This document shows positions 14,990 through 36,234 of a DNA stretch of 37,765 nt, piece by piece. Positions within the stretch are counted from its first letter, which is position 1. Each line of letters opens with the position of its first letter. Origin of the DNA: a virus (lineage: Duplodnaviria; Heunggongvirae; Uroviricota; Caudoviricetes); the IMG/VR virus record IMGVR_UViG_643348545_000015, positions 1 to 37,765 of that record. One strand, 5' to 3'. The position numbers were made by a program, and so were the translations under genes. A model generated the notes under the pieces. That model did no database searches. It worked only from the letters and a program-made list of their open reading frames with translations, and was not told the origin of the DNA.

Positions 14990-14993
14990 AAAA

Positions 14994-16762: not shown

Positions 16763-16763
16763 T

Positions 16764-17472: not shown

Positions 17473-17475
17473 AAT

Positions 17476-17679
17476 TCAGTCCCATAGCTGGACGGTCTGC
17501 ACGGTGGTGGTGGTCGGAATGTCCGGCAGCTCCACCTGCAGCCCGTGAGGTAAAAAGGGGCCGTATTCGGCAAGCCCCGGATTTGCCTTCAGTACCTGCT
17601 CCGTGACACCCTGCGTGCGCCCGTAATGACGCCAGCAAAGCGCGTCCACCGTGTCATACTGATGCGCACGCACTTTCAT
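17476..17679 (-). CDS. X: Tail protein X
   Basis: 67 aa MKVRAHQYDTVDALCWRHYGRTQG... Confidence 0.8.
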   Translation of the reverse strand: MKVRAHQYDTVDALCWRHYGRTQGVTEQVLKANPGLAEYGPFLPHGLQVELPDIPTTTTVQTVQLWD

Positions 17680-18143: not shown

Positions 18144-18238
18144 GCTGCTTTCTCCTGAAATAGAGGGCGGTGGACGGGGTTTTGATGTGGCAGTGCCTTT
18201 CGCCACCCCGTGCCGCCCGTGCGCGGGGGCACGTTCTG

Positions 18239-18889: not shown

Positions 18890-18892
18890 GGA

Positions 18893-19951: not shown

Positions 19952-19967
19952 CGGGTTTTATGCTCCA

Positions 19968-20801: not shown

Positions 20802-20868
20802 GAGCCGTGCTCCGTTAGAAAAAACTTACTGGAGCCTTATGGTTGCGGTGATGGGGGCAGTGAAACAA

Positions 20869-20886
20869 TGCGCGGTATTTGTACCG
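20869..20886. promoter_or_regulatory. Candidate Ogr-dependent late promoter element in the divergent O/P intergenic region
   Basis: TGTACCGACTACCACACA, near-identical to the element upstream of FI. Confidence 0.5.
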
Positions 20887-20943
20887 ACTACCACACAAAC
20901 CGCAGGCGGGGAAAGCCTTCATTCAAGGCTGTAGGTTTGTGCC

Positions 20944-22710
20944 ATGAACACCACACTGACACCCGCAGATCTCGATCCCCGTCGGCAGGCCATGCTGCTG
21001 TACTTTCAGGGATACCGTGTAGCCCGCATTGCTGAAATGCTGGGCGAGAAAGTTGCAACCGTTCACAGCTGGAAGAAACGCGACAAGTGGGGTGACTATG
21101 GGCCGCTGGATCAGATGCAGCTCACCACCGCCGCACGCTACTGCCAGCTCATTATGAAGGAGCACAAAGAAGGGAAAGATTTCAAAGAGATTGACCTGCT
21201 GGCGCGCCAGTCGGAACGCCACGCGCGGATCGGCAAGTTTAACAATGGCGGCAACGAAGCCGACTTACCCCCTAACGTCGCCAACCGCAACAAAGGCCCG
21301 CGCCGTCAGCCGGAAAAGAATGTTTTCACCGATGAGCAGATTGAGAAGCTGGAAGAAATCTTCCATTCCTCCATGTTCAACTACCAGCGCCACTGGTGGG
21401 AAGCCGGAAAAACCAACCGCATCCGCAACCTGCTGAAGTCACGCCAGATCGGCGCGACCTTTTACTTTGCCCGTGAAGCCCTGATTGACGCTCTGCTTAC
21501 CGGACGTAACCAGATTTTCCTTTCCGCCAGCAAGGCACAGGCCCACGTCTTTAAGCAGTACATCATCGACTTCGCCAAAGAAGTGGAAGTGGAGCTGAAA
21601 GGCGATCCGATGGTGCTTCCCAACGGGGCCACACTGTATTTCCTCGGCACCAATGCCCGCACGGCCCAGAGTTACCACGGCAACCTGTATCTGGATGAAT
21701 ATTTCTGGATACCGAAATTCCAGGAGCTGCGCAAAGTGGCTTCCGGTATGGCTATTCACAAAAAATGGCGACAAACCTATTTTTCCACGCCATCCAGCCT
21801 GACACACAGTGCTTATCCGTTCTGGTCCGGTGCGCTATTCAACCGTGGGCGCAATAAAGCCGACAAGGTGGACATCGACCTGTCCCACAGCAATCTGGCT
21901 CCAGGCCTGCTGTGTGCAGACGGGCAATACCGCCAGATAGTCACCGTGGAAGATGCGGTGCGCGGCGGCTGTAACCTGTTCGACCTTGACCAGTTGCGCA
22001 TGGAATACAGCCCGGACGAATACCAGAACCTGCTGATGTGTGAATTCGTGGACGATCTCGCGTCCGTATTTCCGCTCAGCGAGCTGCAGGCATGCATGGT
22101 GGACAGTTGGGAAGTCTGGACCGACTTTCATGCACTGGCCCTGCGCCCGTTTGGCTGGCGAGAAGTGTGGATCGGTTATGACCCGGCAAAAGGTACGCAG
22201 AACGGCGACAGCGCCGGATGCGTGGTGGTGGCACCGCCAGCCGTGCCAGGCGGTAAGTTTCGCATTCTTGAGCGTCACCAGTGGCGCGGGATGGACTTCC
22301 GCGCCCAGGCTGACGCCATCAAAAAACTGACCGAACAGTACAACGTGACCTATATCGGTATCGACTCGACAGGTGTCGGTCACGGAGTTTACGAGAACGT
22401 GAAAGCGTTCTTTCCTGCCGTCCGGGAGTTTGTCTACAACCCCAACGTTAAAAATGCCCTGGTACTCAAGGCCTACGACATTATCAGCCACCGCCGTCTG
22501 GAGTTTGACGCCGGGCACACCGACATTGCGCAGTCATTCATGGCAATCCGTCGTGCCACCACCGCCAGTGGCAACCGCCCGACCTATGAAGCCAGCCGCA
22601 GCGAAGAAGCCAGCCACGCCGATCTGGCCTGGGCAACAATGCACGCACTGTTTAACGAACCGCTGCAGGGCGAGTCCGCCAATACCAGCAATATTGTGGA
22701 GATTTTTTGA
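20944..22710 (+). CDS. P: Terminase large (ATPase) subunit P
   Basis: 588 aa MNTTLTPADLDPRRQAMLLYFQGYRVARIAEMLGEK... Confidence 0.92.
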   Translation: MNTTLTPADLDPRRQAMLLYFQGYRVARIAEMLGEKVATVHSWKKRDKWGDYGPLDQMQLTTAARYCQLIMKEHKEGKDFKEIDLLARQSERHARIGKFNNGGNEADLPPNVANRNKGPRRQPEKNVFTDEQIEKLEEIFHSSMFNYQRHWWEAGKTNRIRNLLKSRQIGATFYFAREALIDALLTGRNQIFLSASKAQAHVFKQYIIDFAKEVEVELKGDPMVLPNGATLYFLGTNARTAQSYHGNLYLDEYFWIPKFQELRKVASGMAIHKKWRQTYFSTPSSLTHSAYPFWSGALFNRGRNKADKVDIDLSHSNLAPGLLCADGQYRQIVTVEDAVRGGCNLFDLDQLRMEYSPDEYQNLLMCEFVDDLASVFPLSELQACMVDSWEVWTDFHALALRPFGWREVWIGYDPAKGTQNGDSAGCVVVAPPAVPGGKFRILERHQWRGMDFRAQADAIKKLTEQYNVTYIGIDSTGVGHGVYENVKAFFPAVREFVYNPNVKNALVLKAYDIISHRRLEFDAGHTDIAQSFMAIRRATTASGNRPTYEASRSEEASHADLAWATMHALFNEPLQGESANTSNIVEIF

Positions 22711-23744
22711 TGGGAAAGAGTAAGAAAAACCGCGCTGCGGCGACGAATCAGATCCAGCATAAAAACCAGACTTCAGCCGAAGCATTCAGCTTCGGTGATC
22801 CCGTTCCAGTACTTGACCGCCGCGAACTGCTGGACTATGTGGAATGTGTTCAGACAGATCGCTGGTATGAGCCTCCCGTCAGCTTTGACGGACTGGCGCG
22901 CACCTTCCGCGCTGCCGTGCATCACAGTTCCCCGATTGCAGTAAAGTGCAACATTCTGACCAGTACCTATATCCCTCATCCGCTGCTCAGCCAACAGGCT
23001 TTTTCGCGTTTTGTGCAGGACTATCTGGTATTTGGTAACGCCTACCTGGAGAAACGCACGAACCGATTCGGTGAAGTTATCGCCCTTGAGCCTGCGCTGG
23101 CAAAATACACCCGACGCGGGTTAGACCTGGATACCTACTGGTTTGTGCAATACGGTATGACAACCCAGCCGTATCAGTTCACGAAAGGCAGCATTTTTCA
23201 TCTGATGGAACCGGACATCAACCAGGAGATCTACGGCCTGCCCGGCTATCTTTCTGCCATTCCATCCGCCCTGCTCAACGAATCCGCCACGCTGTTCCGC
23301 CGTAAGTATTACATCAACGGTAGTCATGCAGGCTTCATCATGTACATGACCGACGCCGCGCAGAATCAGGAGGATGTGAACAACCTCCGCAACGCGATGA
23401 AAAGCGCCAAAGGTCCAGGCAACTTCCGCAATCTGTTTATGTACTCGCCTAACGGCAAAAAGGACGGACTTCAGATTATCCCGTTGTCAGAAGTCGCAGC
23501 GAAGGATGAATTTCTTAACATCAAGAACGTGAGTCGGGATGACATGATGGCAGCGCACCGCGTGCCGCCGCAAATGATGGGGATTATGCCGAATAATGTT
23601 GGGGGGTTTGGGGATGTCGAAAAGGCGAGTCATGTATTTGTTCGTAACGAGTTAATTCCATTACAAAAAAGGCTAATTGAATTAAATGAATGGCTTAATG
23701 ACGAAATTATTCGTTTTGACGAATATAAATTAGGCAATACTTGA
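22710..23744 (+). CDS. Q: Portal protein Q
   Basis: 344 aa from the ATG overlapping the P stop (TGATG); the ORF track begins at TTG 22707. Confidence 0.9.
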   Translation: MGKSKKNRAAATNQIQHKNQTSAEAFSFGDPVPVLDRRELLDYVECVQTDRWYEPPVSFDGLARTFRAAVHHSSPIAVKCNILTSTYIPHPLLSQQAFSRFVQDYLVFGNAYLEKRTNRFGEVIALEPALAKYTRRGLDLDTYWFVQYGMTTQPYQFTKGSIFHLMEPDINQEIYGLPGYLSAIPSALLNESATLFRRKYYINGSHAGFIMYMTDAAQNQEDVNNLRNAMKSAKGPGNFRNLFMYSPNGKKDGLQIIPLSEVAAKDEFLNIKNVSRDDMMAAHRVPPQMMGIMPNNVGGFGDVEKASHVFVRNELIPLQKRLIELNEWLNDEIIRFDEYKLGNT

Positions 23745-23753
23745 TTAAAGCCT

Positions 23754-23787
23754 GTTTAAACTGGCTGTCGGAACAGCCAGTTTAAAC
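23754..23787. terminator. Bidirectional hairpin between Q and the convergent cargo operon
   Basis: Perfect 15-bp stem GTTTAAACTGGCTGT / ACAGCCAGTTTAAAC with loop CGGA. Confidence 0.55.
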
Positions 23788-24630
23788 ACCGGCACCAATG
23801 AAATCGCCATATGAATCTTCTTCAAGGCTGATGTATTCTACCCTCCATTGATCCATCCGCCTCAATGCATACAGGGAGAAATGAGTATCAGCAACAGCTA
23901 TGCACGTATTCAATTCTATAAGTTCTGAATGCCCCAAGGTTGGATCACCATAAAACTTATAAAACAAAGCCTTTAGATCAGAACATGTTTGTTCAGCCGC
24001 TCTTCTGGCATCGGGGCCACCTTCAGTTGCATCATAAACAACATTGATAGAAAGCTCATATGGTATGCCTTCCTCAAGATCGTTAAATCTTTCTTCGCCC
24101 AAATCGAAAAAAACTCCGATCAAATGCTCTGCGTTTGTGGCGATAATATCCGCAACTTCTTTTTCGAAAATAAACTTTTTATCCTCGTCGTAAGCCCGCA
24201 AGCGCTCTTCAAACGAGTTAGGAAACGCTGGACGACCATACTTAGCAGCTAACCATTGCTTAAGAGCTTGTTTCTCTTCTGTGCTAATGGAGAATGCTGG
24301 ATCGTTTTCCTCACAACAGAAAGCTTCTTTAGGAATGATGACTTTCCTTTCATGCCGGAGCTCTACTGCATTCTTCTTCGCACTTTCTGGGTTTTCAAAA
24401 CATAGATCGAGTATTCTCGGATGCTTAGCTCTTTTCATCCTGCTTGACCCCTTTTTCAAGGGGCCAAACATCAGTTCCACGTTTTTTTCTGAATTACTCT
24501 GTAAATCACAATCATGCGTTATAACTACAACTTTATGGTTCGTTTCATCAGGCTGCAGAATTCCAAGTGAAACGGCATCATCATGTTTAAGTACATGCCC
24601 CTGACGCCATGATGTTCCTCGTACCAACAT
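23782..24630 (-). CDS. Hypothetical protein, cargo operon gene 3
   Basis: 282 aa; ATG 9 nt after the gene 2 stop; no motif I can assign by eye; AT-rich codon usage. Confidence 0.6.
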   Translation of the reverse strand: MLVRGTSWRQGHVLKHDDAVSLGILQPDETNHKVVVITHDCDLQSNSEKNVELMFGPLKKGSSRMKRAKHPRILDLCFENPESAKKNAVELRHERKVIIPKEAFCCEENDPAFSISTEEKQALKQWLAAKYGRPAFPNSFEERLRAYDEDKKFIFEKEVADIIATNAEHLIGVFFDLGEERFNDLEEGIPYELSINVVYDATEGGPDARRAAEQTCSDLKALFYKFYGDPTLGHSELIELNTCIAVADTHFSLYALRRMDQWRVEYISLEEDSYGDFIGAGV

Positions 24631-24639
24631 AAATGTGAT

Positions 24640-25302
24640 TTATTCCTCTACCGTTCCAGGAATTGAAATAGATGACTTCCAATCATCTGTCGGTTTCGCC
24701 TTGCTTGCTAAGTAATTGGCCGATTCAGCAGCAGCATTCATCGCTTTAGCTTCATCAATCAATACCTGAACTGCCCTATTCCAATCCTCACCTTCTTTTA
24801 CTACGTCCATTAATGACTTACCATTAAATGCTTTCATTTTCACCAATAGCTTCGCATCATGGAGTCCAGCTTTGGAAAAAGAGTCAGCGACATTACTAAG
24901 GTTGGTAATGAATTGCACTTTTGAAGCATCATCAGGCTGGTTCTCCCCTGACAACCATTTATAGAGAGCCTGCCGAGTTATCCCCAAATCCTTTGCCAGT
25001 TCTGACATTGATGGAGACAGCACTTCTCGAATATTAGCTAAATGTTGGGCAACATTCCTGACATCAACCTCAGGAGAAATTGCAGGCGTGTACGTTGATT
25101 CTATGGAATCAAATGCAAACTGAACCCTTGGCTGAACATACTGACGCCATTGCTTATAAGCATTTACAGGGTATGAAGCCCCCGTACCAACTAATAGTAA
25201 AGATGCGGCGACAGCAACAACACCTGATACACATGAGCTTGACTGCAAATTTGGAGAATATCGATCTACAGAGCCTATGCTTCCGGTGGGAATTGCATAC
25301 AT
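24640..25302 (-). CDS. Hypothetical protein with N-terminal hydrophobic helix and HTH motif, cargo operon gene 2
   Basis: Start MYAIPTG... 7 nt after GGAGGTGA; hydrophobic CVSGVVAVAASLLLVGTGASY; HTH-like SMSELAKDLGITRQALYKWLSGE. Confidence 0.6.
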   Translation of the reverse strand: MYAIPTGSIGSVDRYSPNLQSSSCVSGVVAVAASLLLVGTGASYPVNAYKQWRQYVQPRVQFAFDSIESTYTPAISPEVDVRNVAQHLANIREVLSPSMSELAKDLGITRQALYKWLSGENQPDDASKVQFITNLSNVADSFSKAGLHDAKLLVKMKAFNGKSLMDVVKEGEDWNRAVQVLIDEAKAMNAAAESANYLASKAKPTDDWKSSISIPGTVEE

Positions 25303-25321
25303 TTTAGTCACCTCCGTTGTT

Positions 25322-26131
25322 TCAGTGCCATTTAGTACGGGCAAAATCTGAAACCATGCCTTCAAATGCTTCTTTAACTTTACTATGCAACGAAAGAATC
25401 TGTTTTTCAATTAACTGCAAATCAGTTGACATGTTGCCTTCAACATAATGATCTGTATCAATTATTGCGTGCATACGATGCTCTGTGTTACTAAATCTCG
25501 GCAACGGCAGTAAACCATTAGGAATCATATCTGGCGGAAAACCTAGCTGACCATTCATCTTATGTATTCGTGAAACCATAAATCCATTAGGGATCAATGG
25601 CTCAACACATGTCTGATATACGGACTCTTGTATAGACTGTATTGGCGTCCATCCGAAATCAACACCATGAAGTTCCTTTACAAGATACTGCTCAATTGTT
25701 TCGCTTTTCTCAGGAAACACAGCATCCAAATATCGAAGCCCAATCCGACTTAACAGCGATGGCTTAGCAAATTCTAGAACTTTGCTCAGACCAAGTATCA
25801 ATGACGAGATGAAAGATACATGGTTATCATAATATGTTGTATGGAACGTAATGAAATCGTTGCCTAAAACAAAACCAGATCTTCTATCTGCATCAATCAT
25901 CAACCAACTTGTCACAGGCTCAAATGAATGTACCGGTGGCTCATTGGGGTTTTTTATTTCAAATTTCAACTGAGTTGTATTGGAAACCTCAAATAAAGGA
26001 AATCCCTCAACTCTTAGCGCATCTTGTATGTCTGGAACATACTTACTCATTGCAGCTATTGGAGTAAACTTTACCTGTACCAATGCATAGTAAACGGGCG
26101 CATTGGACATACGTTCGCTGTTAGTACTCAT
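25322..26131 (-). CDS. Hypothetical protein, cargo operon gene 1
   Basis: 269 aa, RBS AAGGAGG before the ATG. The N-terminal pattern NAPVYYALVQVKF is vaguely reminiscent (from memory, unverified) of the uncharacterised TIGR04255 family. Confidence 0.6.
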   Translation of the reverse strand: MSTNSERMSNAPVYYALVQVKFTPIAAMSKYVPDIQDALRVEGFPLFEVSNTTQLKFEIKNPNEPPVHSFEPVTSWLMIDADRRSGFVLGNDFITFHTTYYDNHVSFISSLILGLSKVLEFAKPSLLSRIGLRYLDAVFPEKSETIEQYLVKELHGVDFGWTPIQSIQESVYQTCVEPLIPNGFMVSRIHKMNGQLGFPPDMIPNGLLPLPRFSNTEHRMHAIIDTDHYVEGNMSTDLQLIEKQILSLHSKVKEAFEGMVSDFARTKWH

Positions 26132-26271
26132 GCCGCCCTCCTTGAAATTGTTTCATCTCATATCTCTTTATCTTACTAACTGTAGTTTACACATAGGTTG
26201 ACACTTTCTCCATCATTAAGTTCACTATGACATCAATAGCCAAAACTCTTACGTAATCGCTTCGGCGCGCG

Positions 26272-26290
26272 CTCGTATCCCCGCCACGCC
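26272..26290 (-). other. Candidate cos site (cohesive-end sequence)
   Basis: Minus strand reads GGCGTGGCGGGGATACGAG. The first 13 nt match my recollection of the P2/186 19-nt cohesive end (GGCG[A/T]GGCGGGGAAAGCA[C/T]); orientation puts Q on the correct side. Confidence 0.35.
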
Positions 26291-26494
26291 TGCCCGCTTT
26301 ATGTAGTGGTTTTCATGCACCTGCATGATCTACGCAAAAGCCCACCAGTTCTGGCGGGCCTTAGCAAAAACGATCCTCAAACGATCATGCGATCTCATGC
26401 GGCATAGACATGCACTACAGAGCTAACGCCTCGCAAGGGCTCGTTGTTCAACCTTGCTGACGCCAGAAACAAGTTCAGACGCCAGCAACGTTTC

Positions 26495-26728
26495 TTAATG
26501 CAGCCAGCTGTCGTCTTCCCACACCTTCTGCATAATTTTCATCACTTGCTTCCTTTCTTCGTCCAGTTGCAGTCCGGTCAGTTCCACACCGTTAGAGCTA
26601 CCTTTGCGGATACGAATTACCGTTTTGGGATACAGGGGGCGCAGATTACGGTAAAGCTCGGATTCAAGGGCGTCCAGGGTAGACTGGCTAATCTTCTGCT
26701 CTTTATCGATCATTATTTCAATGCGCAT
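26495..26728 (-). CDS. dinI: DinI-family protein
   Basis: 77 aa MRIEIMIDKEQKISQSTLDALESELYRNLRPLYP...WEDDSWLH, resembling E. coli DinI; RBS GAGGTGA. Confidence 0.8.
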   Translation of the reverse strand: MRIEIMIDKEQKISQSTLDALESELYRNLRPLYPKTVIRIRKGSSNGVELTGLQLDEERKQVMKIMQKVWEDDSWLH

Positions 26729-26738
26729 AAAAGTCACC

Positions 26739-26927
26739 TCAGCTGATGACATCCATTGAGCGGTTGTATTCGTGGCTTCTGATTTTTGCCATGAGTTCAT
26801 CAGTCAATTCAGAAACCCACTGCAGAGCCAGTCCCTTCTCTTCATCACTACACTCACTGGCCGCTACAAGCTTAAGAAAAAAATCAATGCGCTGGAGCTT
26901 CAAAGACTCCAAAAAATAGTCCTGCAT
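26739..26927 (-). CDS. Small hypothetical protein, first gene of the LexA-box operon
   Basis: 62-aa ORF with RBS GGAGGAAAG, 10 nt upstream of the dinI-like gene; function unknown. Confidence 0.5.
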   Translation of the reverse strand: MQDYFLESLKLQRIDFFLKLVAASECSDEEKGLALQWVSELTDELMAKIRSHEYNRSMDVIS

Positions 26928-26970
26928 CTTTCCTCCTATGACACCACACGCAATACTGTATGTATAACCA

Positions 26971-26986
26971 CTGTTTATAATTACAG
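26971..26986. promoter_or_regulatory. LexA (SOS) box
   Basis: CTGTTTATAATTACAG, a perfect CTGT-N8-ACAG, 44-59 nt upstream of the 62-aa ORF. Confidence 0.7.
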
Positions 26987-27080
26987 TATATAATAATCTT
27001 ACTGATGTAAAACGTTTTTTTACGTTTATCAGCCTGATATGCCTGGTATTATTAAGAGCACGAATGGTTAACCATCGTAA

Positions 27081-27377
27081 TTAATACAGGTTTCGCCACT
27101 TATCATCTTCCTGCAAACGCTGGTTCCGATAGAAGATACGCAGGCCTGCTCCTGACGAAATACTGCCGCCGCGAAGGAGTAAATCGACCTCTTTCTCGCT
27201 ACCATCAAACCCTCTGGACTTCAGCTCATACACGAGCTGCTGTCGCTGATGGTCTGTAATTCGCTGTTTGTAGTCTTTACACCGTTTCGGTTTAACCAGG
27301 TGTAACCTTGCTGCCAGTTCCCGGCGTTCTTTTTTGCTCATACTGTGCAGGTAATCGTGCAACTCCTTGTCATCCAT
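27081..27377 (-). CDS. Hypothetical charged protein downstream of A
   Basis: ORF-track frame 27081-27437 opens at a TTG overlapping the A stop; first ATG at 27377 ([13 protein letters not shown]...). No clear RBS, so the call is uncertain. Confidence 0.35.
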
Positions 27378-27433
27378 GCGGGTGATATCCGTTCTGGTAT
27401 CCCCATCAGCTGATTTGTCTTTCCCTTGTTGGT

Positions 27434-29521
27434 TCAAATTTTCAGCAAGGGGACAGTTATTGCCACGAGTCCAAGGGGACAGTTATTGCCACGAGTCCAA
27501 GGGGCGCAAGCGCCCTGGTCGGCTGCCGCCTCCTGAACGTCAACGGCCTTACGAACCATTTTCCACTTCACGGCATGAGTGCAGATTTTGCCCTCTGCAA
27601 TGGGTGACCAGATGCCATAAATACGAATGCCGTGATCGCCATAGGCGGTCGGCTCTTCGTTGATTTCATAAGCGGTTCTGATGAGGTGATATTTACGGGG
27701 AACCAGTACGCCGCCCTGCTTCATGATGTAGGTGGCAAAACAACCAGCATCAGCTGCAGCCAGAATGGCATCAAGGCGCGGGTTATCCAGTACCGGCGCA
27801 CCTGCTTTTTTGTCACCCTGTTGCCTTGCCGCCTGACCAGCCAGCAATCGCAGTTCACGGTAAGCCTGACGCCCCGGAATGCCAAAGAAGCGGAATTGCT
27901 GAACACGATGCAGAGACGCCCAGGCATTAACGTATTCAGCGTTATCACGCAGAGATTTACCCGTTTCCTTGCTGATCTCGCCAGCCAGACCACGCCCGTC
28001 AATGTTCTTACTGATGTATTTCGCGATGTAGCTAGTCGGCGTTCCTTTGCGCGGGTTTATCAGCTCAGACTTAAAGCGTGGCCCCGTGTTATTACCCAGC
28101 TCCTCGCGGTCTTCACGGATAGCAAACTTACGCAACAATGCAGTAATGGCGCGGCGGTCTTTTTTGCGCATGAAACACAACAGGTGCCAGTGAACTGTGC
28201 CGTCATGATGCGGCTCAGCCACCCGCACGCCATACCAGCGCAACCCGGCTTTGTGCATCGCCTTACGAAATGCAGCAAACATGCCGACCAGATAATCACT
28301 GCTTTGTCTTACCGTCGCATTTGTCCAAGTCGGGTTGGGCCTACCGTTATTTAGCGTGGAATGGAAACGTGACGGACAGGTGATGGTGTAGAAAACGGCG
28401 CAGTCACCGCGCATTTCCGCGATAAGCTCCAGACCTTTAACACAGGCCATCATCTCATTGCGGCGATGCGCAGGGTTGCTGCTGCTGGCGTTTACCACAT
28501 CCTCCATGTCCAGCGTGTCGCCGTCTTCGTTCACCAGTTCATGAGAACGGAAAAACTCCAGCGACTTACGGCGCTGCTCACGTTTATGCATCACGGCTTC
28601 ATAGCTGACATAGGGAGATGCTTTTTTGCTGACCAGGCAAACAGCACGCAACTGCTCTTCCCGCCATTCGCAACGCATCTTCCACAATTTCCGATACCAC
28701 CAGTCGGCGCACAGCATACGCGCCAGCGACCCCGGAATGAGTTCATAGGGCACGGGTTTACGGCGGTTTCTTTTCCGGCGGAGTTGCTCAAACGCAGGCG
28801 GTATGACATCCAGTCGCAGGGTTTCCGCCGCCACCTTTTCCCATGTCTTGCGGATTTCTTCTGGCTTAACGTCATCGGTGGCATACAAATCGCCACAAGC
28901 GGCATCAAGGCACATGCTCATATGCGCAGCTACCAGGGTGGACAGGCGTTTCACCTGATCCTGACTCATTTCAGGCAGGATCAGCAGACCGTCCAGCCCT
29001 TCATGGCTTGCCATAAAGCGAAAAGAAGTGGATAGCTGACTGTCGCGTACATGCTCCAGTCGTTCCAGACATGGCTTAATCGTCTCACGCAAATAGCGGG
29101 AATAAGCCTTTGGCCTGCCCAGGCTGCTGAAGTATTCAATACGTTGCATCAGCGGCTTGCTGATATGGGAAGGCTGGGCGTTAACGTCCGCCAGAATGAC
29201 CATGCCCGGATTAAAACGCTGCTGCTCATGCGCCAGCTTTGCCCGGCTAATGAGCTTATCCTGCTCCATTTCGCGCTGGACAGGATCACGTGATTCATTA
29301 AAGAAATAACGCTCCCATACCTGATCACTCAGAGCCTCGCGGCGCAGTTGTTCCTGCTCGTTATCGGTAGCGTACAGAGTGATCAGGTTTGAAAGCGCAG
29401 AAACCGGCGCAACTTCCGCCGGGTCCAGATAAGGGTTAATGGCCTTTTTCGGGCTGTTCCATGAGAATGCTGCGGCGACCTCGTTAAAGCCGCTGCAGTT
29501 GTTCATATCAGCATGGCTCAT
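27434..29521 (-). CDS. A: Rolling-circle replication initiator endonuclease A
   Basis: 695 aa with HUH-type motif VHWHLLCF and tyrosine motif YIAKYISK. Confidence 0.9.
27446..27504. repeat. Tandem direct repeat, 2.3 copies of a 26-bp unit
   Basis: CAAGGGGACAGTTATTGCCACGAGTC at 27446-27471 and 27472-27497, plus CAAGGGG; lies in the last ~25 codons of A. Confidence 0.9.
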
Positions 29522-30375
29522 GCACGCACTCCGTACACGGCAGAACTATCCACGCCACGCGAAGGATCAAATCCCACCCAGCAGCGCGGCCCGGAAACAG
29601 CGATGATTTCTGTTGCAGATTTACTCTCACCAGCTGCTACACCGATGCTGCGTTTTGCCTTGATGTAGTGGTGAGTAAAATTGCGATACAGCGAACGGAT
29701 CAGGGATGTATCACTGTTAGAAACAATGACCGGATGTCCTTCTGATGACCGATGTTCAAGAACGGATGCCAGGTGATACTGGTCATCTTCAGTGAAACCA
29801 TCAGTGTGATAGCCGGAAAACGTACCGTCATACGGCGGATCGCAATACACCACATCCCCCACCTGCAGCATCGCCAGCGTTTCATCAAAGCTTGCGCAGA
29901 TAAACGTTGCTCGCTGGGCTTTTTCTGCAAATGTGCGAAGTTCTTTTTCAGGGAAATACGGATTTTTATAATTACCGTAGGGAATGTTGAAATGCCCGCT
30001 CTTGTTATAGCGACATAAACCACGGTAACCGTGACGATTGAGATACAGGAAATATACCGCTTTCATGAAATCAGTAATTTCAGTGGAGTAATTAAACTCC
30101 TGCCTTATGTTGTAATAAGCCACCTCCCTGTTTGCGATCTCAAATAAAACTCTGGCGCGAGATATAAACGATTCACAATCAGCGGCAACCTTTTTATAGA
30201 GGTTGATTAAATCAGGATTAATATCCGCAACCAGATAGCTGGGGTAATCCGTCTCCATCATCACAGCACAAGAACCCGCGAAAGGTTCAACCAGTCGCGG
30301 GCCTGCAGGAAGGTGTTTTTTCAGTTCGGACATAATGGCGGTTTTATTACCCGCCCATTTCAGGATGGTGCTCAT
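29518..30375 (-). CDS. DNA adenine methyltransferase (Dam-like)
   Basis: Start [11 protein letters not shown]... after AGGAGGTG; DPPY motif ([10 protein letters not shown]); stop overlaps the A start. Confidence 0.85.
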
Positions 30376-30550
30376 ACAGCACCTCCTGCAATAACATATC
30401 CTAAAGCTTCTAATGGGGTTAATGAGCGAATTGATAGCATCACCCATTGTTCTGAAACTGCCATGACGTCATTAACCGGAAGCACATGAGAGATAACCGC
30501 GGCCCATTCCCTACCCGTAAATACGCCATGCTTCCGGTAATGACTCCAAC

Positions 30551-31054
30551 TTACTGATAGTGTTTTATGTTCAGATAATGCCCGATGACCTTGTCATGCA
30601 GCTCCACCGATTTTGAGAACGACAGTGACTTCCGTCCCAGCCTTGCCAGATGTTGTCTCAGATTCAGATTATGTCGCTCAATGCGCTGAGTGTAACGCTT
30701 GCTGATAACGTGCAGCTTTCCCTTCAGGCGTGATTCATACAGCGGCCAGCCATCCGTCATCCATACCACGACCTCAAAGGCCGACAGCAGGCTCAGAAGA
30801 CGCTCCAGTGTGGCCAGAGTGCGTTCACCGAAGACGTGCGCCACAACAGTCCTCCGTATCCTGTCATACGCGTAAAACAGCCAGCGCTGACGTGATTTAG
30901 CACCGACGTAGCCCCACTGTTCGTCCATTTCAGCGCAGACAATCACATCACTGCCCGGTTGTATGCGCGAGGTTACCGACTGCGGCCTGAGTTTTTTAAG
31001 TGACGTAAAACCGTGTTGAGGCCAACGCCCATAATGCGTGCACTGGCGCGACAT
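30551..31054 (-). CDS. insB: IS1 InsB frame (transposase made as InsAB' by -1 frameshift)
   Basis: ...[44 protein letters not shown]... open frame overlapping the 3' end of insA. Confidence 0.9.
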
Positions 31055-31248
31055 CCGACGCCATTCATGGCCATATCAATGATTTTCTGGTGCGTACCGG
31101 GCTGAGAGGCGGTGTAAGTGAACTGTAGTTGCCATGTTTTACGGCAATGAGAGCAGAGATAGCGCTGATGTCCGGCAGTGCTTTTGCCGTTACGCACCAC
31201 GCCTTCAGTAGCGGAGCAGGAAGGACATCTGATGGAAATGGAAGCCAC
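30973..31248 (-). CDS. insA: IS1 InsA
   Basis: 91 aa [40 protein letters not shown]... Confidence 0.93.
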
Positions 31249-31447
31249 GCAAGCACCTTAAAATCACCATCATACACTAAATCAGTAAGTTGGCAGCATT
31301 ACCCATGCTTCCATTCGCAAAGAGAAAGAACATCACCAACTTTATAGCCACGATCGTCTTTACGAAGTTCAGCCGTCTTTTGACCTGCAACCACAGCGTT
31401 GAAATACTTAGGTGCAATTTTTAATTGATGGATACGCACAGCCCCTG

Positions 31448-31675
31448 TCATACAGCACCTCCGTTGTAATGTTTGCCTTTCAGCTCTGCGATTTCCTGGC
31501 AAGTAATGCAAAGCTGCACACCCGGAATGGCGCGGCGTCGTGCTGGCGGAATTGGCGCTTCACACTCAATGCAAAGCACGCGAGACACGCCCGGTGTTTT
31601 GGCACGAGCAGCACGGATATGGCGCTGGCGTTCTTCTTCAACGCGCTGCTGTACGAGATCCATTGCATCAGCCAT
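31448..31675 (-). CDS. TraR/DksA-type C4 zinc-finger protein
   Basis: 75 aa with [26 protein letters not shown]; stop overlaps the ASCH start. Confidence 0.7.
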
Positions 31676-31908
31676 TAGTGGATCTCCTGCGCTTCGTTCT
31701 GGATTGCTTCAGCAGTCACACGCAGCAGTTCTGCCGCTTCCACGTGGTTTAGCTGACGGGATGAGATATGACACGCCAGGCTATCAAGGCGAGCTGCCAT
31801 TGCTTCAGCCCTTGCCCGGCGTTCTTCCAGACGAGCCTCTGTCAGTAAAATATTAAGCCCTGCATCATCCGGTCCGGTTTTAGTCGTAAGGATTTCAATA
31901 TTACGCAT
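31675..31908 (-). CDS. Hypothetical early-operon protein
   Basis: MRNIEILTTKTGPDDAG..., 8 nt after AGGAGA. Confidence 0.55.
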   Translation of the reverse strand: MRNIEILTTKTGPDDAGLNILLTEARLEERRARAEAMAARLDSLACHISSRQLNHVEAAELLRVTAEAIQNEAQEIH

Positions 31909-31975
31909 AATCAATTCTCCTGAATTTAGATAAAGGGATGCCCGGCGGGTTTACGCCATTAATTTCATTAGTTGG

Positions 31976-32317
31976 TTAATTCGGCATGGTTAGCCGTTTG
32001 GGAAATAAGCTCACCACTGCACGAAAATGATTCATTGCTTTAATCAACTCCCGCTTTTCGTCAGTGGTCAGCTCATTAATGCTGATGCTATGACGTTCAG
32101 CTGGAATTTTTGCCATAAAGAATATGGCAGCCAGTGCTCGTTTATTTTGTTCGTTATTGATATCCCGTGGATCACGCATATCTTTAATAAACCGCTCAAG
32201 CTCTGACTCAATATTCAGGCCAAATACTTTCGCCCTTAACTCCGCAATGTGATTAAGTCCATTCAGGCGTTCACCGGGGCTTAATGGAACAGTCGCCGCA
32301 GCGCCATTAATTGCCAT
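31976..32317 (-). CDS. Hypothetical early-operon protein
   Basis: 113-aa ORF with ATG start, same strand as the early operon. Confidence 0.55.
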   Translation of the reverse strand: MAINGAAATVPLSPGERLNGLNHIAELRAKVFGLNIESELERFIKDMRDPRDINNEQNKRALAAIFFMAKIPAERHSISINELTTDEKRELIKAMNHFRAVVSLFPKRLTMPN

Positions 32318-32339
32318 AATTCATATCCCCAAAACGCAA

Positions 32340-32564
32340 CTATCGTTCTTTGTTCTTACGGTAACGTTCAAGAGGAGATACATTTTTTCGTATCGTCTCT
32401 TTAACCTGCTCTCCCCGTAAAAACGTCCCATCCCTTAGCGTGAAAAAGTAACTGCCATCGCCCGACAACGACGGATAACAACAGAGCAAATCATCTTCAG
32501 GTACTGAATAACTCTCCCCTCTGTAACGAAACTGATAAACCACTTCACTTTCCGCTGCATACAT
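32340..32564 (-). CDS. Hypothetical early-operon protein
   Basis: 74-aa ORF, RBS GGAGAAAG 5-6 nt before the ATG. Confidence 0.5.
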   Translation of the reverse strand: MYAAESEVVYQFRYRGESYSVPEDDLLCCYPSLSGDGSYFFTLRDGTFLRGEQVKETIRKNVSPLERYRKNKER

Positions 32565-32731
32565 TTTGACTTTCTCCGTTTCCTCGTGGTCAATTCAGAC
32601 AGCAATTCATCTTGTGAATGACATGGATGCCAGCGTTTACCATCCTCACCCATGATCCAGCCGTGACCGTAGTGCATTGCCGGGCTTTGTTTTACCAGCA
32701 GCGATGCAAATGATGGTTCTTTCGTCAGCAT
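32435..32731 (-). CDS. Hypothetical early-operon protein (3' end uncertain)
   Basis: Start MLTKEPSFASLL... 5 nt after GAGGTG just past the cII stop; the frame overlaps the next gene by 130 nt, so the true end or a frameshift is unresolved. Confidence 0.4.
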   Translation of the reverse strand: MLTKEPSFASLLVKQSPAMHYGHGWIMGEDGKRWHPCHSQDELLSELTTRKRRKSKCMQRKVKWFISFVTEGRVIQYLKMICSVVIRRCRAMAVTFSR

Positions 32732-32738
32732 AAGCACC

Positions 32739-33248
32739 TCACAGCAAACCGAATGAAGCACCGAGGCCAGTCACGGTATCAACTGCACTCACCATCGCAG
32801 GATTAGCCTGTAAACGGGCCTGCAATGAAACAGCCGCCAGCGCCATCAGTCGTGTTACAGAGTTAATGCTGCTGATAGCATCACGACGACCGGCACTAGT
32901 TTTTACATCACCAGATACCGCACCTGCTGCAACACGCCCGATCTCTGCAGTTGCGCTCATGACGTAATGCGGCAGTTTCTCTTTTGCCACCTCATTAATC
33001 GGTACACATGGCAGACAATGAATCTGTGCCAGAAAACCATCTACCAGCGTTGAATCTTCAGTCAGATCGGTAAGCAGCCAGATTTCTGGTGCGGTTAATA
33101 AATGAGGCTGAGCTGGGTTCAGCTTGTTCCGCAGAATCTGCACATTCATGCCTGCACGTTCTGCCAGTTGCACCAGGTTGTGACGCAGTGCAAAAGCCCT
33201 ACAGGCTTCATCGAAATGCGGATGTTTGGAAATCTTGTAATCAAACAT
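32739..33248 (-). CDS. cII: CII-type lysogeny establishment regulator (phage 186 CII-like)
   Basis: 169 aa [49 protein letters not shown]...SFGLL, closely matching my recollection of 186 CII. Confidence 0.85.
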
Positions 33249-33280
33249 GGTGCCCCCTTAGAAAGTTCCCATAATTGAAC

Positions 33281-33523
33281 TTACTTACCAACAATGACGC
33301 GGAAGTTGGAATGACCGAGGGATTCACGGACCTGATCAGTTTTGTACATCAGATAACGAAGGCTTACGCGGCCTTTATTTTTTTCTTTCTTGACCATGTA
33401 CTTAGCAAGTTGACCATGGTGAATTTTTTGGTAAACAGAGCCACGGGAAATGCCCTCCCACTCTGCGAACTCTGCAGGCGTAGCCATCTCTTTTGGTACA
33501 CGAATTGAAATATCAGTACTCAT
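33281..33523 (-). CDS. apl: Apl/Cox-type excisionase and lytic-lysogenic switch protein
   Basis: 80 aa with HTH TPAEFAEWEGISRGSVYQKIHHGQ; first gene of the rightward-promoter operon, divergent from cI. Confidence 0.8.
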   Translation of the reverse strand: MSTDISIRVPKEMATPAEFAEWEGISRGSVYQKIHHGQLAKYMVKKEKNKGRVSLRYLMYKTDQVRESLGHSNFRVIVGK

Positions 33524-33602
33524 AGTGCAGTATCTCTTACTTTGTGTGCGTGTTAGTTCGTTTTAGCTCGTCTCTTTAACTCTCACATCAAGAGACACGA
33601 AG

Positions 33603-33631
33603 ACATTACGATCTTGATTCAAGATTGTCAA
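33603..33631 (-). promoter_or_regulatory. Candidate lytic promoter pR with operator palindrome in the spacer
   Basis: On the minus strand: -35 TTGACA (33626-33631), 17-bp spacer containing palindrome ATCTTGA-T-TCAAGAT (33611-33625), -10 TAATGT (33603-33608). Confidence 0.55.
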
Positions 33632-33644
33632 ATGGAGATTACCA

Positions 33645-34277
33645 ATGTTAAACATCAGAATGGGTTCCGATACGGGAGGTAAGGCAGCTATTGAGAGGCT
33701 GCTTGAGGCTTATGGATTCACAACTAAGCAGGCATTAAGCGAGCACCTGAATGTCTCAAAAAGTACTATGGCAAACAGAGTGTTACGTGACAGTTTTCCT
33801 GCTGACTGGATAATTCAGTGTGCACTAGAAACCGGTGTTTCGTTACTTTGGTTAGCCACTGGACAGGGAAGCATGAAAGAAGGATACGAGCCTGAGAAAA
33901 GATCTCATAACGAGAACAAACAAGCAATTAAACCGTTATCCAAACTCATAACTCCATCTATTCCTAAAGGAACCTTGGAAAATGGACAACTCAGTATTGA
34001 TGAAGAGATTTTCCTAGACCACAGCATATTACCTGCAGATTATGAAGAATCGATGTTCTTAGAAACCCCTACTGATTGTTATCTCATCGATAAATCAGTT
34101 AAACAAGTCAGCAATGGATTCTGGCTTATCAATATTGATGGAATGATTATTATTGCAAAAATCATGCGGATTCCCGGCAATAAGATTGTAGTAAATCAAG
34201 ATGAAGCGTCTTTCGAGTGCTCTGCTGATGATGTGGAAGTTATTGGGCGTGCAGTCAAAGTAATAAAGAGTATCTAA
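33645..34277 (+). CDS. cI: Immunity repressor CI (186-type)
   Basis: 210 aa with N-terminal HTH (...LSEHLNVSKSTMANRVLRDSF...CALETGVSLLWLATGQG); I see no LexA-like Ser-Lys autocleavage motif; directly upstream of int. Confidence 0.8.
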   Translation: MLNIRMGSDTGGKAAIERLLEAYGFTTKQALSEHLNVSKSTMANRVLRDSFPADWIIQCALETGVSLLWLATGQGSMKEGYEPEKRSHNENKQAIKPLSKLITPSIPKGTLENGQLSIDEEIFLDHSILPADYEESMFLETPTDCYLIDKSVKQVSNGFWLINIDGMIIIAKIMRIPGNKIVVNQDEASFECSADDVEVIGRAVKVIKSI

Positions 34278-34279
34278 AC

Positions 34280-35296
34280 ATGACTGTCAGAAAACAGCCA
34301 AACGGTAAATGGTTGTGCGAGTGCTATCCCAATGGACGCAATGGCAAGCGCGTGCGTAAGCAATTTGCTACGAAAGGCGAAGCCATTGCTTTTGAAAGCT
34401 TCACAATGGAAGAAGTGAACAAAAAACCATGGCTGGGGGAAAAGGAAGATCGGCGACACCTATCAGAATTAATTGAGCAGTGGTATTCCCTGTATGGTCA
34501 AACACTCGCAGACCCCAAGCGCCTCATAGCGAAACTTAGAATTATCTGTAATGGTCTAGGCGATCCCATCGCTTCAGAACTGACAGCCGGTGACTTTACG
34601 AAATACCGCGAAGCACGGTTAAAAGGTGAAGTACGAAATGAAGATGGCACGTTTATGTCGCCCGTTAAGCCCCGCACGGTAAACCTTGAACAGCGCAATC
34701 TATCATCTGTTTTTGGTACACTGAAAAAGCTGGGCCACTGGTCAGCCCCCAACCCGCTTGCTGGGCTGCCAACATTTAAAATTGCTGAGAGTGAATTGGC
34801 GTTCCTGACCCCGGAAGAAATTAAACGTCTGCTGGATGCCTGCGCCGATTCTCAAAGCTCCAGCCTGCTTTTGATTGCAAAAATATGCCTGGCCACCGGC
34901 GCACGCTGGAGCGAAGCCGAAAACCTGCAGAGTCATCAGGTATCAAAATACCGTATCACTTATACCAAGACCAAAGGCAAGAAAAACCGAACTGTGCCTA
35001 TTTCTAAGGATTTATATGAAGAACTGCCTAAGAATAGGGGGAAGTTATTCACCCCATGCAGAAAAGCCTTTGAGCGTGCAGTAAAGCGGGCTGGTATCGA
35101 TCTGCCAGAGGGTCAATGTACTCACGTTCTGCGTCATACATTCGCTAGCCATTTTATGATGAATGGTGGAAACATATTGGTTTTGCGGGATATCCTAGGA
35201 CATTCAGATATAAAAATGACCATGGTCTATGCACACTTCGCCCCAGACCATTTAGAAGATGCCGTAACTAAAAATCCTTTATTTAATTTGAGGTAA
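34280..35296 (+). CDS. int: Tyrosine integrase (P2 Int family)
   Basis: 338 aa with C-terminal catalytic region ...HVLRHTFASHFMMNGGNILVLRDILGHSDIKMTMVYAHF... Confidence 0.93.
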   Translation: MTVRKQPNGKWLCECYPNGRNGKRVRKQFATKGEAIAFESFTMEEVNKKPWLGEKEDRRHLSELIEQWYSLYGQTLADPKRLIAKLRIICNGLGDPIASELTAGDFTKYREARLKGEVRNEDGTFMSPVKPRTVNLEQRNLSSVFGTLKKLGHWSAPNPLAGLPTFKIAESELAFLTPEEIKRLLDACADSQSSSLLLIAKICLATGARWSEAENLQSHQVSKYRITYTKTKGKKNRTVPISKDLYEELPKNRGKLFTPCRKAFERAVKRAGIDLPEGQCTHVLRHTFASHFMMNGGNILVLRDILGHSDIKMTMVYAHFAPDHLEDAVTKNPLFNLR

Positions 35297-35306
35297 GTAG
35301 TAATTT

Positions 35307-35975
35307 ATGAATAGCGAACTAGAGTTACTTATAAAAATATTATTCCCTTCCCTATCTGCCATTATATCCTTATTAGGGCTTAAAACAGGGTGGACTTATA
35401 AAAAAGACAAACTATTCACATCACGTAAAAACATTAGCGAATTTTCATATCAGATGTATAAAAGCAGTGAAGATCCGACCTTCAAAAAACTGGCGGAAGA
35501 TTACGGCATTGCTGCATTAACCAAAGATAACACATTGACAAAAAAACAAAGATTAATATTACTCAACACAACAAACCCCGTTAGCGATATAGATGATTAT
35601 TCCAAATGTCAAAGTCTAATTTCCATTACCACCCATAAAGAAATATTCGCATGGAATAAAAAAAGATATAAATACAGCATATATAGAAAATTAATAAAAA
35701 TTATAACAACTCTAATTTACTTCATGGGCAGTCTCATCGTAGCACTTCCTTTCAGTTATTCTGTTGTAGTAAGTGCTAAGATGATGGAGAAGATAAACCA
35801 TCTAACTACTTGGCAATACTTTGGTTTAAGCAGCTATTTTGTGGTATCGGGAGTAGCAATATGCTTTATCTGCCTAGATAAGCTCTCCAAGATTAAGATC
35901 GCCGAGAGATTAATCGTTTCAAATAGGCGTTTAGGCGACAAATGCAGTGGCGGCACTTTGGCGGCAGAAAGTTAA
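35307..35975 (+). CDS. AT-rich hypothetical membrane protein (cargo)
   Basis: 222 aa with about three hydrophobic helices (LELLIKILFPSLSAIISLLGL; IITTLIYFMGSLIVALPFSYSVVV; YFGLSSYFVVSGVAICFICL); Lys/Asn/Ile-rich; starts 11 nt after the int stop. Confidence 0.6.
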   Translation: MNSELELLIKILFPSLSAIISLLGLKTGWTYKKDKLFTSRKNISEFSYQMYKSSEDPTFKKLAEDYGIAALTKDNTLTKKQRLILLNTTNPVSDIDDYSKCQSLISITTHKEIFAWNKKRYKYSIYRKLIKIITTLIYFMGSLIVALPFSYSVVVSAKMMEKINHLTTWQYFGLSSYFVVSGVAICFICLDKLSKIKIAERLIVSNRRLGDKCSGGTLAAES

Positions 35976-36060
35976 AAACCCATAAAACGGACAGACACCG
36001 CATAAATCTAACCAACTGAAAATCAAAGCAAATCATTGTTTTTACAGACATTGAAATGCT

Positions 36061-36105
36061 ATGTAGGAATTTCGGACGCGGGTTCAACTCCCGCCAGCTC
36101 CACCA
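36061..36105. repeat. attR core: displaced 45-bp 3' end of ssrA
   Basis: Identical to 1016-1060. Confidence 0.9.
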
Positions 36106-36234
36106 ATCATGATTGGACGGTGTAAGGACTACACCAACAAAAACAGGAAGTTATAAGTCTCAGCAGGACACCGACCAGACGGTGAGGAGACAAAAAAGGA
36201 TACGCAACGGAGTCGCGACTCCCTATGACATTAA

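Follow-up and report, generated by a model that had tools for sequence, protein, structure and literature searches.

We propose that a very recent, simple transposition of IS1 struck a 186/Fels-2-like prophage at ssrA, and that the insertion was probably a second, effectively neutral hit on a prophage whose replication gene A had already been frameshifted. In the proposed course of events, a 26-bp duplication at the replication origin would have frameshifted A first. An active IS1 copy would then have transposed into an accessory DUF3850/ASCH gene of the early lytic operon, between a DksA-like gene and the dam-A pair. The material analysed is a stretch of 37,765 nt, here called the window.

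An IS1 copy in the early operon of a 186-like prophage

Pfam and PHROG matches place the prophage in the 186/Fels-2-like branch of the P2 family (Peduoviridae), integrated at ssrA. Genes for CI, Apl/Cox, CII (CP76), a DUF2732 protein, a DksA-like protein, A and a DinI/Tum-like protein are present together with P2-type late genes. The window is collinear with an annotated prophage at 99.3-99.8%. The host record that it matches, GCA_000026305.1 (CU928162.2), we take to be that of E. coli ED1a. Compared with the early operon of coliphage 186 and Fels-2-like phages (apl-cII-fil ... DUF2732-DksA-like-accessory ORFs-A), gene order and gene families are the same, and the ORF upstream of A overlaps it as orf84 does in phage 186. 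The accessory slot holds DUF3850 and dam here and three ORFs, the last of them orf84, in 186. Also unlike phage 186, an intact A has 804 aa here and ssrA is the site of integration. In PADLOC the three cargo genes (23782-26131) were without a significant match, one of them giving a marginal match to RmrA (E 8.4e-4, 16 bits); the same comparison identified the prophage dam as an orphan methyltransferase. The features of the insertion and its surroundings are as follows.

1016..36106, no strand: whole prophage, between 46-bp att repeats at 1016-1061 (ssrA 3' end) and 36061-36106
31448..31675, minus strand: DksA/TraR-like zinc-finger gene, immediately upstream, with a stop that overlaps the start of DUF3850
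31304..31451, minus strand: DUF3850/ASCH gene up to codon 50 (5' fragment), with a stop in the first IS1 bases; product ends in ...CEWKHG*
31304..31312, no strand: promoter-proximal copy of the target-site duplication CATGCTTCC; the IS1-free contig L005 has one copy
30536..31303, minus strand: IS1, with insA and insB' read in the direction of the phage early operon
30973..31248, minus strand: insA, 91 aa, GTG start
30991-30999: A6C frameshift motif TTAAAAAAC, near the insA 3' end
30551..31054, minus strand: insB' frame, a 167-aa ORF reached via -1 frameshift
30527..30535, no strand: promoter-distal copy of the target-site duplication CATGCTTCC
30372..30535, minus strand: DUF3850/ASCH gene from codon 51 to codon 100 and the stop (3' fragment); its TGA overlaps the dam ATG
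29518..30375, minus strand: Dam-type (D12 class) N6-adenine DNA methyltransferase, 285 aa, PF02086 at 1e-76, with its own GGAGG Shine-Dalgarno sequence

The element measures 768 bp and has imperfect terminal inverted repeats of 23 nt (30536-30558 and 31281-31303), of the IS1 type beginning GGTAATG, that are 87% complementary. Pfam assigned Zn_ribbon_InsA, HTH_Tnp_IS1 and DDE_Tnp_IS1 to its called genes, and its 768 bp show 100% identity to copies that other E. coli chromosomes and plasmids carry under the annotation of an intact 'IS1 family transposase'. The perfect 9-bp repeat on both sides has a chance probability of 4^-9 (~4e-6) at these fixed flanking positions. The insertion is precise, adding 768 bp and the 9-bp duplication without a deletion. 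Length, 23-nt ends, insA and insB' with the A6C -1 motif and the 9-bp duplication all agree with the IS1 family of Enterobacteriaceae; the element itself shows no differences, and what sets this lineage apart is the insertion site alone. From the intact ORFs, the intact ends and the recent insertion we infer that this copy is active in transposition.

The age of the event can be judged from the metagenome contig L005, which agrees at 100% identity over 14 kb but has no IS1 and carries a single CATGCTTCC, the exact empty site. Judged by this twin, the insertion is very recent. At this site IS1 was found in none of 5,426 complete E. coli genomes, a collection that does not include the source record. 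Strain B-1109, the sole match with at least 80% coverage, was considered as a carrier of the same insertion and rejected: there, an IS1A borders on a dam that is truncated, with the remaining prophage deleted, which makes it a separate event.

Deleting IS1 together with one repeat copy restores an ORF of 303 nt (100 aa) that matches Pfam DUF3850 (1.1e-23, 83.6 bits; gathering cut-off 22.9) and ASCH (1.9e-5, 25.7 bits; gathering cut-off 21.2), PHROG 986 (2e-39) and the ASCH domain structure PDB 3IUW (E 7.8e-10). IS1 landed after codon 50, so the product is cut to 50 aa. Three ATGA stop/start overlaps link the neighbouring genes, namely DksA-like/DUF3850 (31448-31451), DUF3850/dam (30372-30375) and dam/A (29518-29521). 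On the putative translational coupling of A to the ORF upstream, structure prediction places the start codon of A inside a hairpin formed with the 3' end of dam (z = -2.2), and the phage 186 record notes that A seems to be translated only if translation proceeds to the end of orf84. These results bear out most of an earlier note on this DNA, which had described a recent IS1 insertion with intact 9-bp target duplication, the splitting of a 100-aa ASCH/PUA-like gene and the place of that gene in the early operon ahead of dam and A. The operon runs leftward, and its stop and start codons overlap here. The interval it gave for the insertion, 30372-31451, holds as the span of the split host ORF; IS1 itself is confined to 30536-31303. 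A natural split of the ASCH-like gene in IS-free relatives, which the note had considered, is not seen in the closest ones: 77 genomes match at least 80% of a 1,000-bp empty-site query, and among the matches listed an intact annotated DUF3850 gene is present in 40 of 40.

How much does the loss of this gene matter? It forms a facultative cassette of 299 bp bounded by 15-nt repeats. It is missing from related phage records (Cartapus, RE2010 and several Klebsiella phages), in which the DksA-like gene adjoins dam through one copy of GGAGGTGCTGTATGA. As the cassette is absent from these related isolated phages, the gene appears dispensable and its loss is unlikely to matter. The DUF3850 proteins of P2 (orf91) and Wphi (gp91) share the domain at 46-47% identity and are likewise encoded by small accessory genes adjoining replication gene A, with the difference that the gene lies at the 3' end of A in P2-type phages and upstream of dam-A here.

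The state of replication gene A

The earlier note had treated gene A as an intact target of IS1 polarity. This part of its reading had to be abandoned, as A is already frameshifted by a perfect tandem duplication.

27446..27497, no strand: perfect tandem duplication of 26 bp (27446-27471 = 27472-27497), the cause of the frameshift in A
27434..29521, minus strand: replication gene A, truncated form, 695 aa, with the frame lost from aa 684
27081..27433, minus strand: 3' remainder of gene A (intact-form codons 684-804), orphaned by the loss of frame and with no evident ribosome-binding site

The duplication cuts A from 804 to 695 aa; a 99.8%-identical prophage of strain 2012EL-2448 lacks it and encodes an A of 804 aa. 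The truncated protein keeps the catalytic Phage_GPA core (aa 188-510) and loses 121 C-terminal residues, a tail that shares a motif with A of phage 186 and that is, by its pN/pS of 0.12-0.49, under purifying selection. All seven equivalent duplication alleles examined were marked 'frameshifted' by PGAP. No record of the phage collection contains the duplication, which is weak evidence, as this A family is represented, at 80% identity and above, by only about 57 records. Homology to A of P2 stops near aa 681 and the catalytic core is kept whole; residual activity of the truncated protein is therefore possible.

The order of the two lesions follows from the IS1-free contigs L005, L006 and L010, which also carry the duplication. 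Since it is present in the IS1-free twin L005, the duplication predates IS1, and any replication defect probably has a primary cause other than IS1. On the sequence evidence, the prophage probably could not replicate even before IS1 arrived, which makes the insertion most likely a second, effectively neutral hit. In practice, the insertion makes the defect harder to reverse: a tandem duplication can collapse back, and precise excision of IS1 is rare.

Polarity on dam and A, and other readings of the insertion

A polar effect of IS1 on dam-A is plausible. If the insB' frame is reached only through rare frameshifting, as is established for IS1, the element would place a largely untranslated stretch between the early promoter region and dam-A. 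Transcripts started at the early promoter after induction would in part terminate within IS1 by classical Rho-dependent polarity, and expression of dam and A would fall. Polar IS1 insertions are classically known from the gal and lac operons; Rho-dependent polarity and the internal IS1 terminator were reportedly treated by Hubner, Iida and Arber in 1987. As in the classical cases, IS1 interrupts a polycistronic unit ahead of genes with a putative translational link; unlike in those cases, the downstream target gene was already inactivated and the early transcript of 186 is annotated as anti-terminated, which could override polarity. A rut-like C-rich, G-poor stretch, sought in the untranslated insB' part in this orientation, was not found there, the only one lying in translated insA; sequence alone thus predicts no strong Rho site. 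According to the phage 186 annotation the terminators of this region are anti-terminated in early lytic growth, and anti-termination of the 186 type could also suppress polarity of IS1. A promoter scan that covered the DNA downstream of IS1 as well as the outward end of the element stayed at chance level (7 sites versus 7.0 expected). A literature search on the prophages of the source strain, on IS1 polarity and on gene A of phage 186 returned nothing specific.

Such polarity could be taken, in line with the earlier note, as the primary lesion, which would have rendered an otherwise competent prophage induction-defective with the 695-aa A still functional. That IS1 separates the early promoter region from dam-A within a chain of closely overlapping genes, with no downstream promoters above chance, would suit this reading, as would the intact catalytic core of A, the mere 694 aa of A in phage 186 and the occurrence of the truncated allele on 21 contigs. 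We nonetheless regard it as unlikely. The A protein of 186 has 83 residues past its origin, including the motif lost here, and the lost tail is under purifying selection. Duplication alleles are moreover rare (8/5,426), stand beside near-identical duplication-free alleles, and were called frameshifted by PGAP throughout.

Alternatively, the insertion might be functional and selected, either by locking the prophage, with harmful early genes blocked after SOS induction, or because read-out from the promoter of IS1 itself supplies the lysogen with a low, constitutive level of prophage Dam. We consider this quite improbable. The IS1 allele does occur beyond the record of the source isolate, in at least two assemblies from metagenomes (L008 and L009), a spread that clonal descent of one strain can explain. 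Since insA is oriented as dam, transcripts from its promoter (minus strand, 31296-31269) could enter dam; however, this promoter is weak and autorepressed, a subject reportedly covered by Machida and Machida in 1989 and by Zerbib et al. in 1990, and the host possesses its own Dam. IS1 insertion is also known to create promoters, as stated where PMC12095673 cites Prentki et al. 1986, but the scan predicted no hybrid promoter where this element faces outward. With A already broken, little was left to lock. An artefact of assembly, or a chimera joined at a repeated IS1, can practically be dismissed: multicopy IS1 often breaks or misjoins assemblies, yet the element is bordered by its perfect 9-bp target duplication, the sequence on either side is collinear with the empty site in L005, and the independent metagenome contigs L008 and L009 cross the same IS1/phage junction.

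Recurrent duplication at the replication origin

The 26-bp duplication in gene A, rather than IS1, is the more unusual feature of this prophage. The 7-nt repeat CCCCTTG borders its unit, which overlaps the predicted nick site of the origin, the origin being placed by homology to phage 186 and to P2-type origin annotations. The unit can be written as GACTCGTGGCAATAACTGTCCCCTTG, starting from the position that aligns with the annotated origin nucleotide of 186 and lying inside the P2-type origin feature. The duplication junction is ambiguous over 8 positions, of which one placement coincides exactly with the predicted nick site; in origins of this type a second CCCCTTG follows 26 nt downstream of the nick site.

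Duplication alleles were counted with a 40-nt junction query, TGGCAATAACTGTCCCCTTGGACTCGTGGCAATAACTGTC; an earlier 72-nt query had joined two overlapping pieces, was uninformative for counting and was replaced. The junction occurs in 8 of the 5,426 genomes, compared with 1,120 to 2,481 that hold this A tail or the origin core. The duplication was found on at least seven flanking haplotypes, in E. coli prophages with differing accessory genes and cargo, and this recurrence suggests a mutational hotspot. A single origin followed by spread through recombination was rejected as the main explanation, as the nearest variable sites (-41 and +45) differ on both sides across 7 haplotypes; it is also disfavoured by the S88 allele, which is nearer to duplication-free alleles (99.2%) than to other duplication alleles. 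Duplication alleles adjoin near-identical duplication-free ones, and their rarity in such company fits short-lived dead ends.

But, how could a phage come to disable its own replication gene at this point? Tentatively, we suggest that protein A, an HUH nickase, may occasionally end a round of rolling-circle replication at a pseudo-site, which would leave a duplicated origin core and a frameshifted A; the product could still be packaged and could lysogenise, but would then be unable to replicate. Michel and Ehrlich are said to have reported illegitimate recombination at rolling-circle origins in M13 and pC194 in 1986. Similar to that case, one placement of the junction falls exactly on the predicted nick site and the second CCCCTTG offers a possible pseudo-site; different from it, slippage between the 7-nt CCCCTTG repeats explains the duplication equally well as protein A.

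The IS1 finding in itself carries little weight. Insertions of IS elements in prophage genes are already known as a routine step, and this one is ordinary prophage decay. Its value is corrective: the element struck a dispensable cassette, and as replication gene A was already broken, predictions on inducibility should not be pinned on IS1. The 40-nt junction offers genome surveys a simple marker for prophages that are probably unable to replicate. A recurrent origin-site duplication that inactivates A in unrelated P2-like prophages provides a testable mechanism for the grounding of temperate phages. If the nickase reading is true, it would constitute a recurrent, self-inflicted path from phage to dead prophage, a state that insertions such as this IS1 would then make permanent.

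Prophage layout and the inserted element

The last 46 bp of the tmRNA gene are repeated, and the two repeats enclose a 35.1-kb prophage. Its genes were identified by Pfam and PHROG matches, and its early genes are laid out as in the early lytic operon of coliphage 186.

698-1060, tmRNA gene
1016-1061 and 36061-36106, 46-bp att repeats
27434-29521, minus strand, replication gene A
29518-30375, minus strand, Dam-type methyltransferase gene (dam)
30372-31451, minus strand, split DUF3850 gene
30372-30386 and 31448-31462, 15-nt GGAGGTGCTGTATGA copies with Shine-Dalgarno and overlapping start/stop, either side of DUF3850
30536-31303, IS1, 768 bp
30551-31054, minus strand, insB' frame, overlapping insA
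30973-31248, minus strand, insA (InsA, 91 aa, GTG start)
30991-30999, slippery motif TTAAAAAAC
31448-31675, minus strand, DksA-like zinc finger
31675-31908, minus strand, DUF2732
31976-32317, minus strand, DUF5347
32739-33248, minus strand, CII (CP76)
33281-33523, minus strand, Apl/Cox-like excisionase
33645-34277, plus strand, CI repressor
34280-35296, plus strand, integrase

The stop/start overlaps are real, with ATGA at the DksA-like/DUF3850, DUF3850/dam and dam/A boundaries. The element has 23-nt terminal inverted repeats (GGTAATGACTCCAACTTACTGAT and ATCAGTAAGTTGGCAGCATTACC) and lies between identical 9-bp direct repeats CATGCTTCC (30527-30535 and 31304-31312), which bears out the earlier note's IS1 with a 9-bp target duplication. 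It is a canonical IS1, 100% identical over its full length to annotated intact IS1 family transposase copies on other E. coli chromosomes and plasmids. Judged by sequence, the copy looks active; its insA has the orientation of the early operon.

The rest of the prophage appears intact: it has both att sites, and its late-gene ORFs run collinear with those of a relative in E. coli 2012EL-2448. Collinearity is lost over part of a 1.83-kb segment with 27-nt inverted repeats (9582-9608, 11439-11465), which adjoins a recombinase gene (8960-9532, minus strand); 8960-11465 resembles an invertible tail-fibre segment of the Gin/Cin type. About 25 single-base deletions in the tail-fibre region of this relative (13594-15141 of its locus versus 9659-11227 of the window), where genes are annotated as frameshifted, are probably sequencing errors rather than biology. 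A cargo slot between the portal gene and a DinI/Tum-like gene (23782-26131, minus strand) holds three genes, annotated in the 2012EL-2448 relative as TIGR04255 family, transcriptional regulator and hypothetical; a PADLOC search of them gave no convincing match. Related prophages carry quite different sets there (LA2681 HEPN and PIN, TIR, DUF4062, STAS-like), and the slot fits a defence-type hotspot. An ORF just after int and inside the att bounds (35307-35975, plus strand) encodes 222 aa with hydrophobic stretches, and another between attL and ogr (1184-1666, plus strand) encodes 160 aa with a weak PADLOC match to PDC-S48 (1.8e-7). To the right of attR (36107-36787), the window leads directly to a csiD-like gene, read from translation, from 36788 onward, whereas AIDA-repeat, IS3 and ypjA remnants come after the same prophage in 2012EL-2448 (39321-42281 of its locus); the window's host is thus without that island material beside ssrA.

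In a related prophage of E. coli B-1109 (NZ_CP117971.1; 4020-5070 of the compared locus), an IS1A adjoins a dam gene without its C-terminal end, which is followed by chromosomal mdfA. An IS1-associated deletion looks to have taken out gene A and all late genes in this prophage; IS1 thus entered this operon independently there.

The interrupted gene and the age of the insertion

The interval 30372-31451, assigned to the insertion in the earlier note, gives the bounds of the interrupted host ORF and not those of IS1. With IS1 and one copy of the repeat taken out, the ORF is whole again at 303 nt (100 aa); it matches DUF3850 (1.1e-23, 83.6 bits) and ASCH (1.9e-5) in Pfam, PHROG 986 'RNA-binding protein' and the ASCH structure 3IUW (7.8e-10), in agreement with the proposed split 100-aa ASCH/PUA-like gene. 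The 5' fragment now stops after codon 50, at a stop codon made by the first IS1 bases.

A 1,000-bp reconstruction without IS1, our empty-site query, aligns to phage records of Cartapus, RE2010 and many Klebsiella phages as two pieces covering 701 bp only, and there the DksA-like gene immediately adjoins dam. Prophages of S88, M8 and O9:H10 strains have the junction ...CAACGGAGGTGCTGTATGAGCACC... with one GGAGGTGCTGTATGA copy (one mismatch in S88), while the window and its close relatives have two, one on each side of a 299-bp DUF3850 cassette. Since the gene-less relatives have one copy, DUF3850 is a cassette of exactly 299 bp that can plug in or drop out. DUF3850 genes are common phage accessory genes (533 matching records); P2-type orf91 and Wphi gp91, both adjoining gene A in their phages, belong here too. 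A dispensable accessory gene is the best explanation, and because related phages do without this facultative cassette, lytic growth is unlikely to suffer from its loss, and any effect of the insertion on it would have to be polar.

The IS1-free metagenome contig L005 (ERZ27246453) is 100% identical to the window over 9,102 nt on the dam side and 99.98% identical on the other, where the two differ solely by a gap at the edge of IS1; it has a single CATGCTTCC copy and an intact 100-aa DUF3850 gene. IS1 at the same site was found in none of the 5,426 genomes of an annotated E. coli collection, which is without record CU928162.2. Both results support well the earlier claim of a recent event. An exact substring of the window is the reverse complement of a locus from that record (GCA_000026305.1), which we take to be E. 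coli ED1a. The empty-site query was matched over at least 80% by 77 genomes of the collection; in the 40 listed the match is in one piece from end to end (best identity 99.9%) and DUF3850 is annotated as intact, so the gene is not naturally split in these IS-free relatives. An assembly artefact is rejected, as two further assemblies contain contigs (L008 and L009) that extend from dam through the IS1/phage junction and end within IS1; the insertion thus circulates in a lineage. A very recent, ordinary hop is the best explanation.

Gene A and polarity

The 2012EL-2448 prophage, the closest one free of IS1, shows 99.3-99.8% identity with the window over its length, and its replication endonuclease has 804 aa. 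Over 11439-30535, the two differ by just 10 substitutions and one 26-bp insertion (27446-27471), a perfect tandem duplication of 27472-27497 within A on the minus strand (span 27446-27497). The duplication puts A out of frame from codon 684 on, so that A ends at 695 aa and 121 residues are gone; all seven fetched equivalent alleles carry the PGAP label 'frameshifted'. The lost tail shows a pN/pS of 0.12-0.49 between alleles and a motif common to phage 186 A (S-K/R-K/R-ERREL..RL), sequence-based evidence that these residues matter. The Phage_GPA catalytic core (aa 188-510) is kept, hence residual activity of truncated A is possible.

As the IS1-free contigs L005, L006 and L010 also have the duplication, it is older than the IS1 insertion. 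The earlier note had taken IS1 as likely polar on dam-A and the prophage as perhaps induction-defective. Its observation is confirmed and its interpretation partly supported: the recent IS1 and the split gene stand, but A was already frameshifted, and IS1 is probably not what disabled replication. A very recent hop into a dispensable accessory gene would thus have met a prophage whose gene A had been frameshifted beforehand.

Polarity is a classical property of IS1 insertions, and the element carries a terminator. A promoter scan of the window gave 7 sites versus 7.0 expected, i.e. chance level, with no promoter-like site placed to drive dam-A except a 9-of-12 match within insB'; no C-rich, G-poor region was found in the untranslated insB' stretch. 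The dam gene has its own Shine-Dalgarno (GGAGG), and the A start codon lies within the 3' arm of a predicted hairpin pairing with the dam end. According to the phage 186 record, translation of A appears to need translation to the end of orf84, and a terminator just inside A acts when A is untranslated. Terminators of this region are anti-terminated in early lytic development in the same record, and this could suppress IS1 polarity as well. We infer that IS1 may add polarity on dam-A; it makes reversion harder. The existence of Hubner, Iida & Arber (1987) and Prentki et al. (1986) was confirmed via a reference list.

Recurrent duplication at the predicted origin

By coding-strand alignment of phage 186, a P2-type origin (phage fiAA91-ss) and the window, the 26-bp duplication overlaps the predicted origin nick site.

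Phage 186 origin, annotated origin nucleotide bracketed: GCGCCCTCTCG[G]AGTTCTGTCAATAACTGT
P2-type origin feature (phage fiAA91-ss): GCGCCTCGGAGTCCTGTCAAT
Window at the origin: GCGCCCCTTGGACTCGTGGCAATAACTGTCCCCTTG

The duplicated unit, flanked by the 7-nt repeat CCCCTTG, can be written as GACTCGTGGCAATAACTGTCCCCTTG, starting at the position aligned with the annotated nick. In its unduplicated form, the core (46 bp) is conserved across 2,481 E. coli genomes.

The 40-nt junction created by the duplication occurs in 8 of 5,426 complete E. coli genomes (S88, MS7163, N53, M8, two O9:H10 strains, EC261 and 19KM1863). Accessory genes and cargo vary among the prophages bearing it, and over 2,625 aligned positions their A alleles show as many as about 250 differences. 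At least seven haplotypes can be told apart in the flanks out to 400 bp, with differences already at the first variable sites on either side, -41 and +45. The window's A allele is two substitutions apart from one duplication-free allele, and the nearest such allele to that of S88 is 99.2% identical. Repeated independent origin is the parsimonious reading of these alleles. A phage collection gave 0 records with the junction, weak evidence with about 57 records having an A protein at least 80% identical. Two duplication-bearing alleles switch haplotype between -41 and +45: contig L006 is window-like upstream of the duplication and unlike the window downstream, and 19KM1863 is O9:H10-like upstream and briefly window-like downstream. 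Such switches may mean that a mosaic or recombination boundary also falls at the origin.

Slippage between the CCCCTTG repeats could make the duplication, and so could aberrant termination by the A nickase at a pseudo-site, for which illegitimate recombination at the M13 and pC194 origins provides an analogy; both fit the data alike. IS1 insertion in a prophage is known biology, and of these results only the recurring duplication at the origin might be worth following further.
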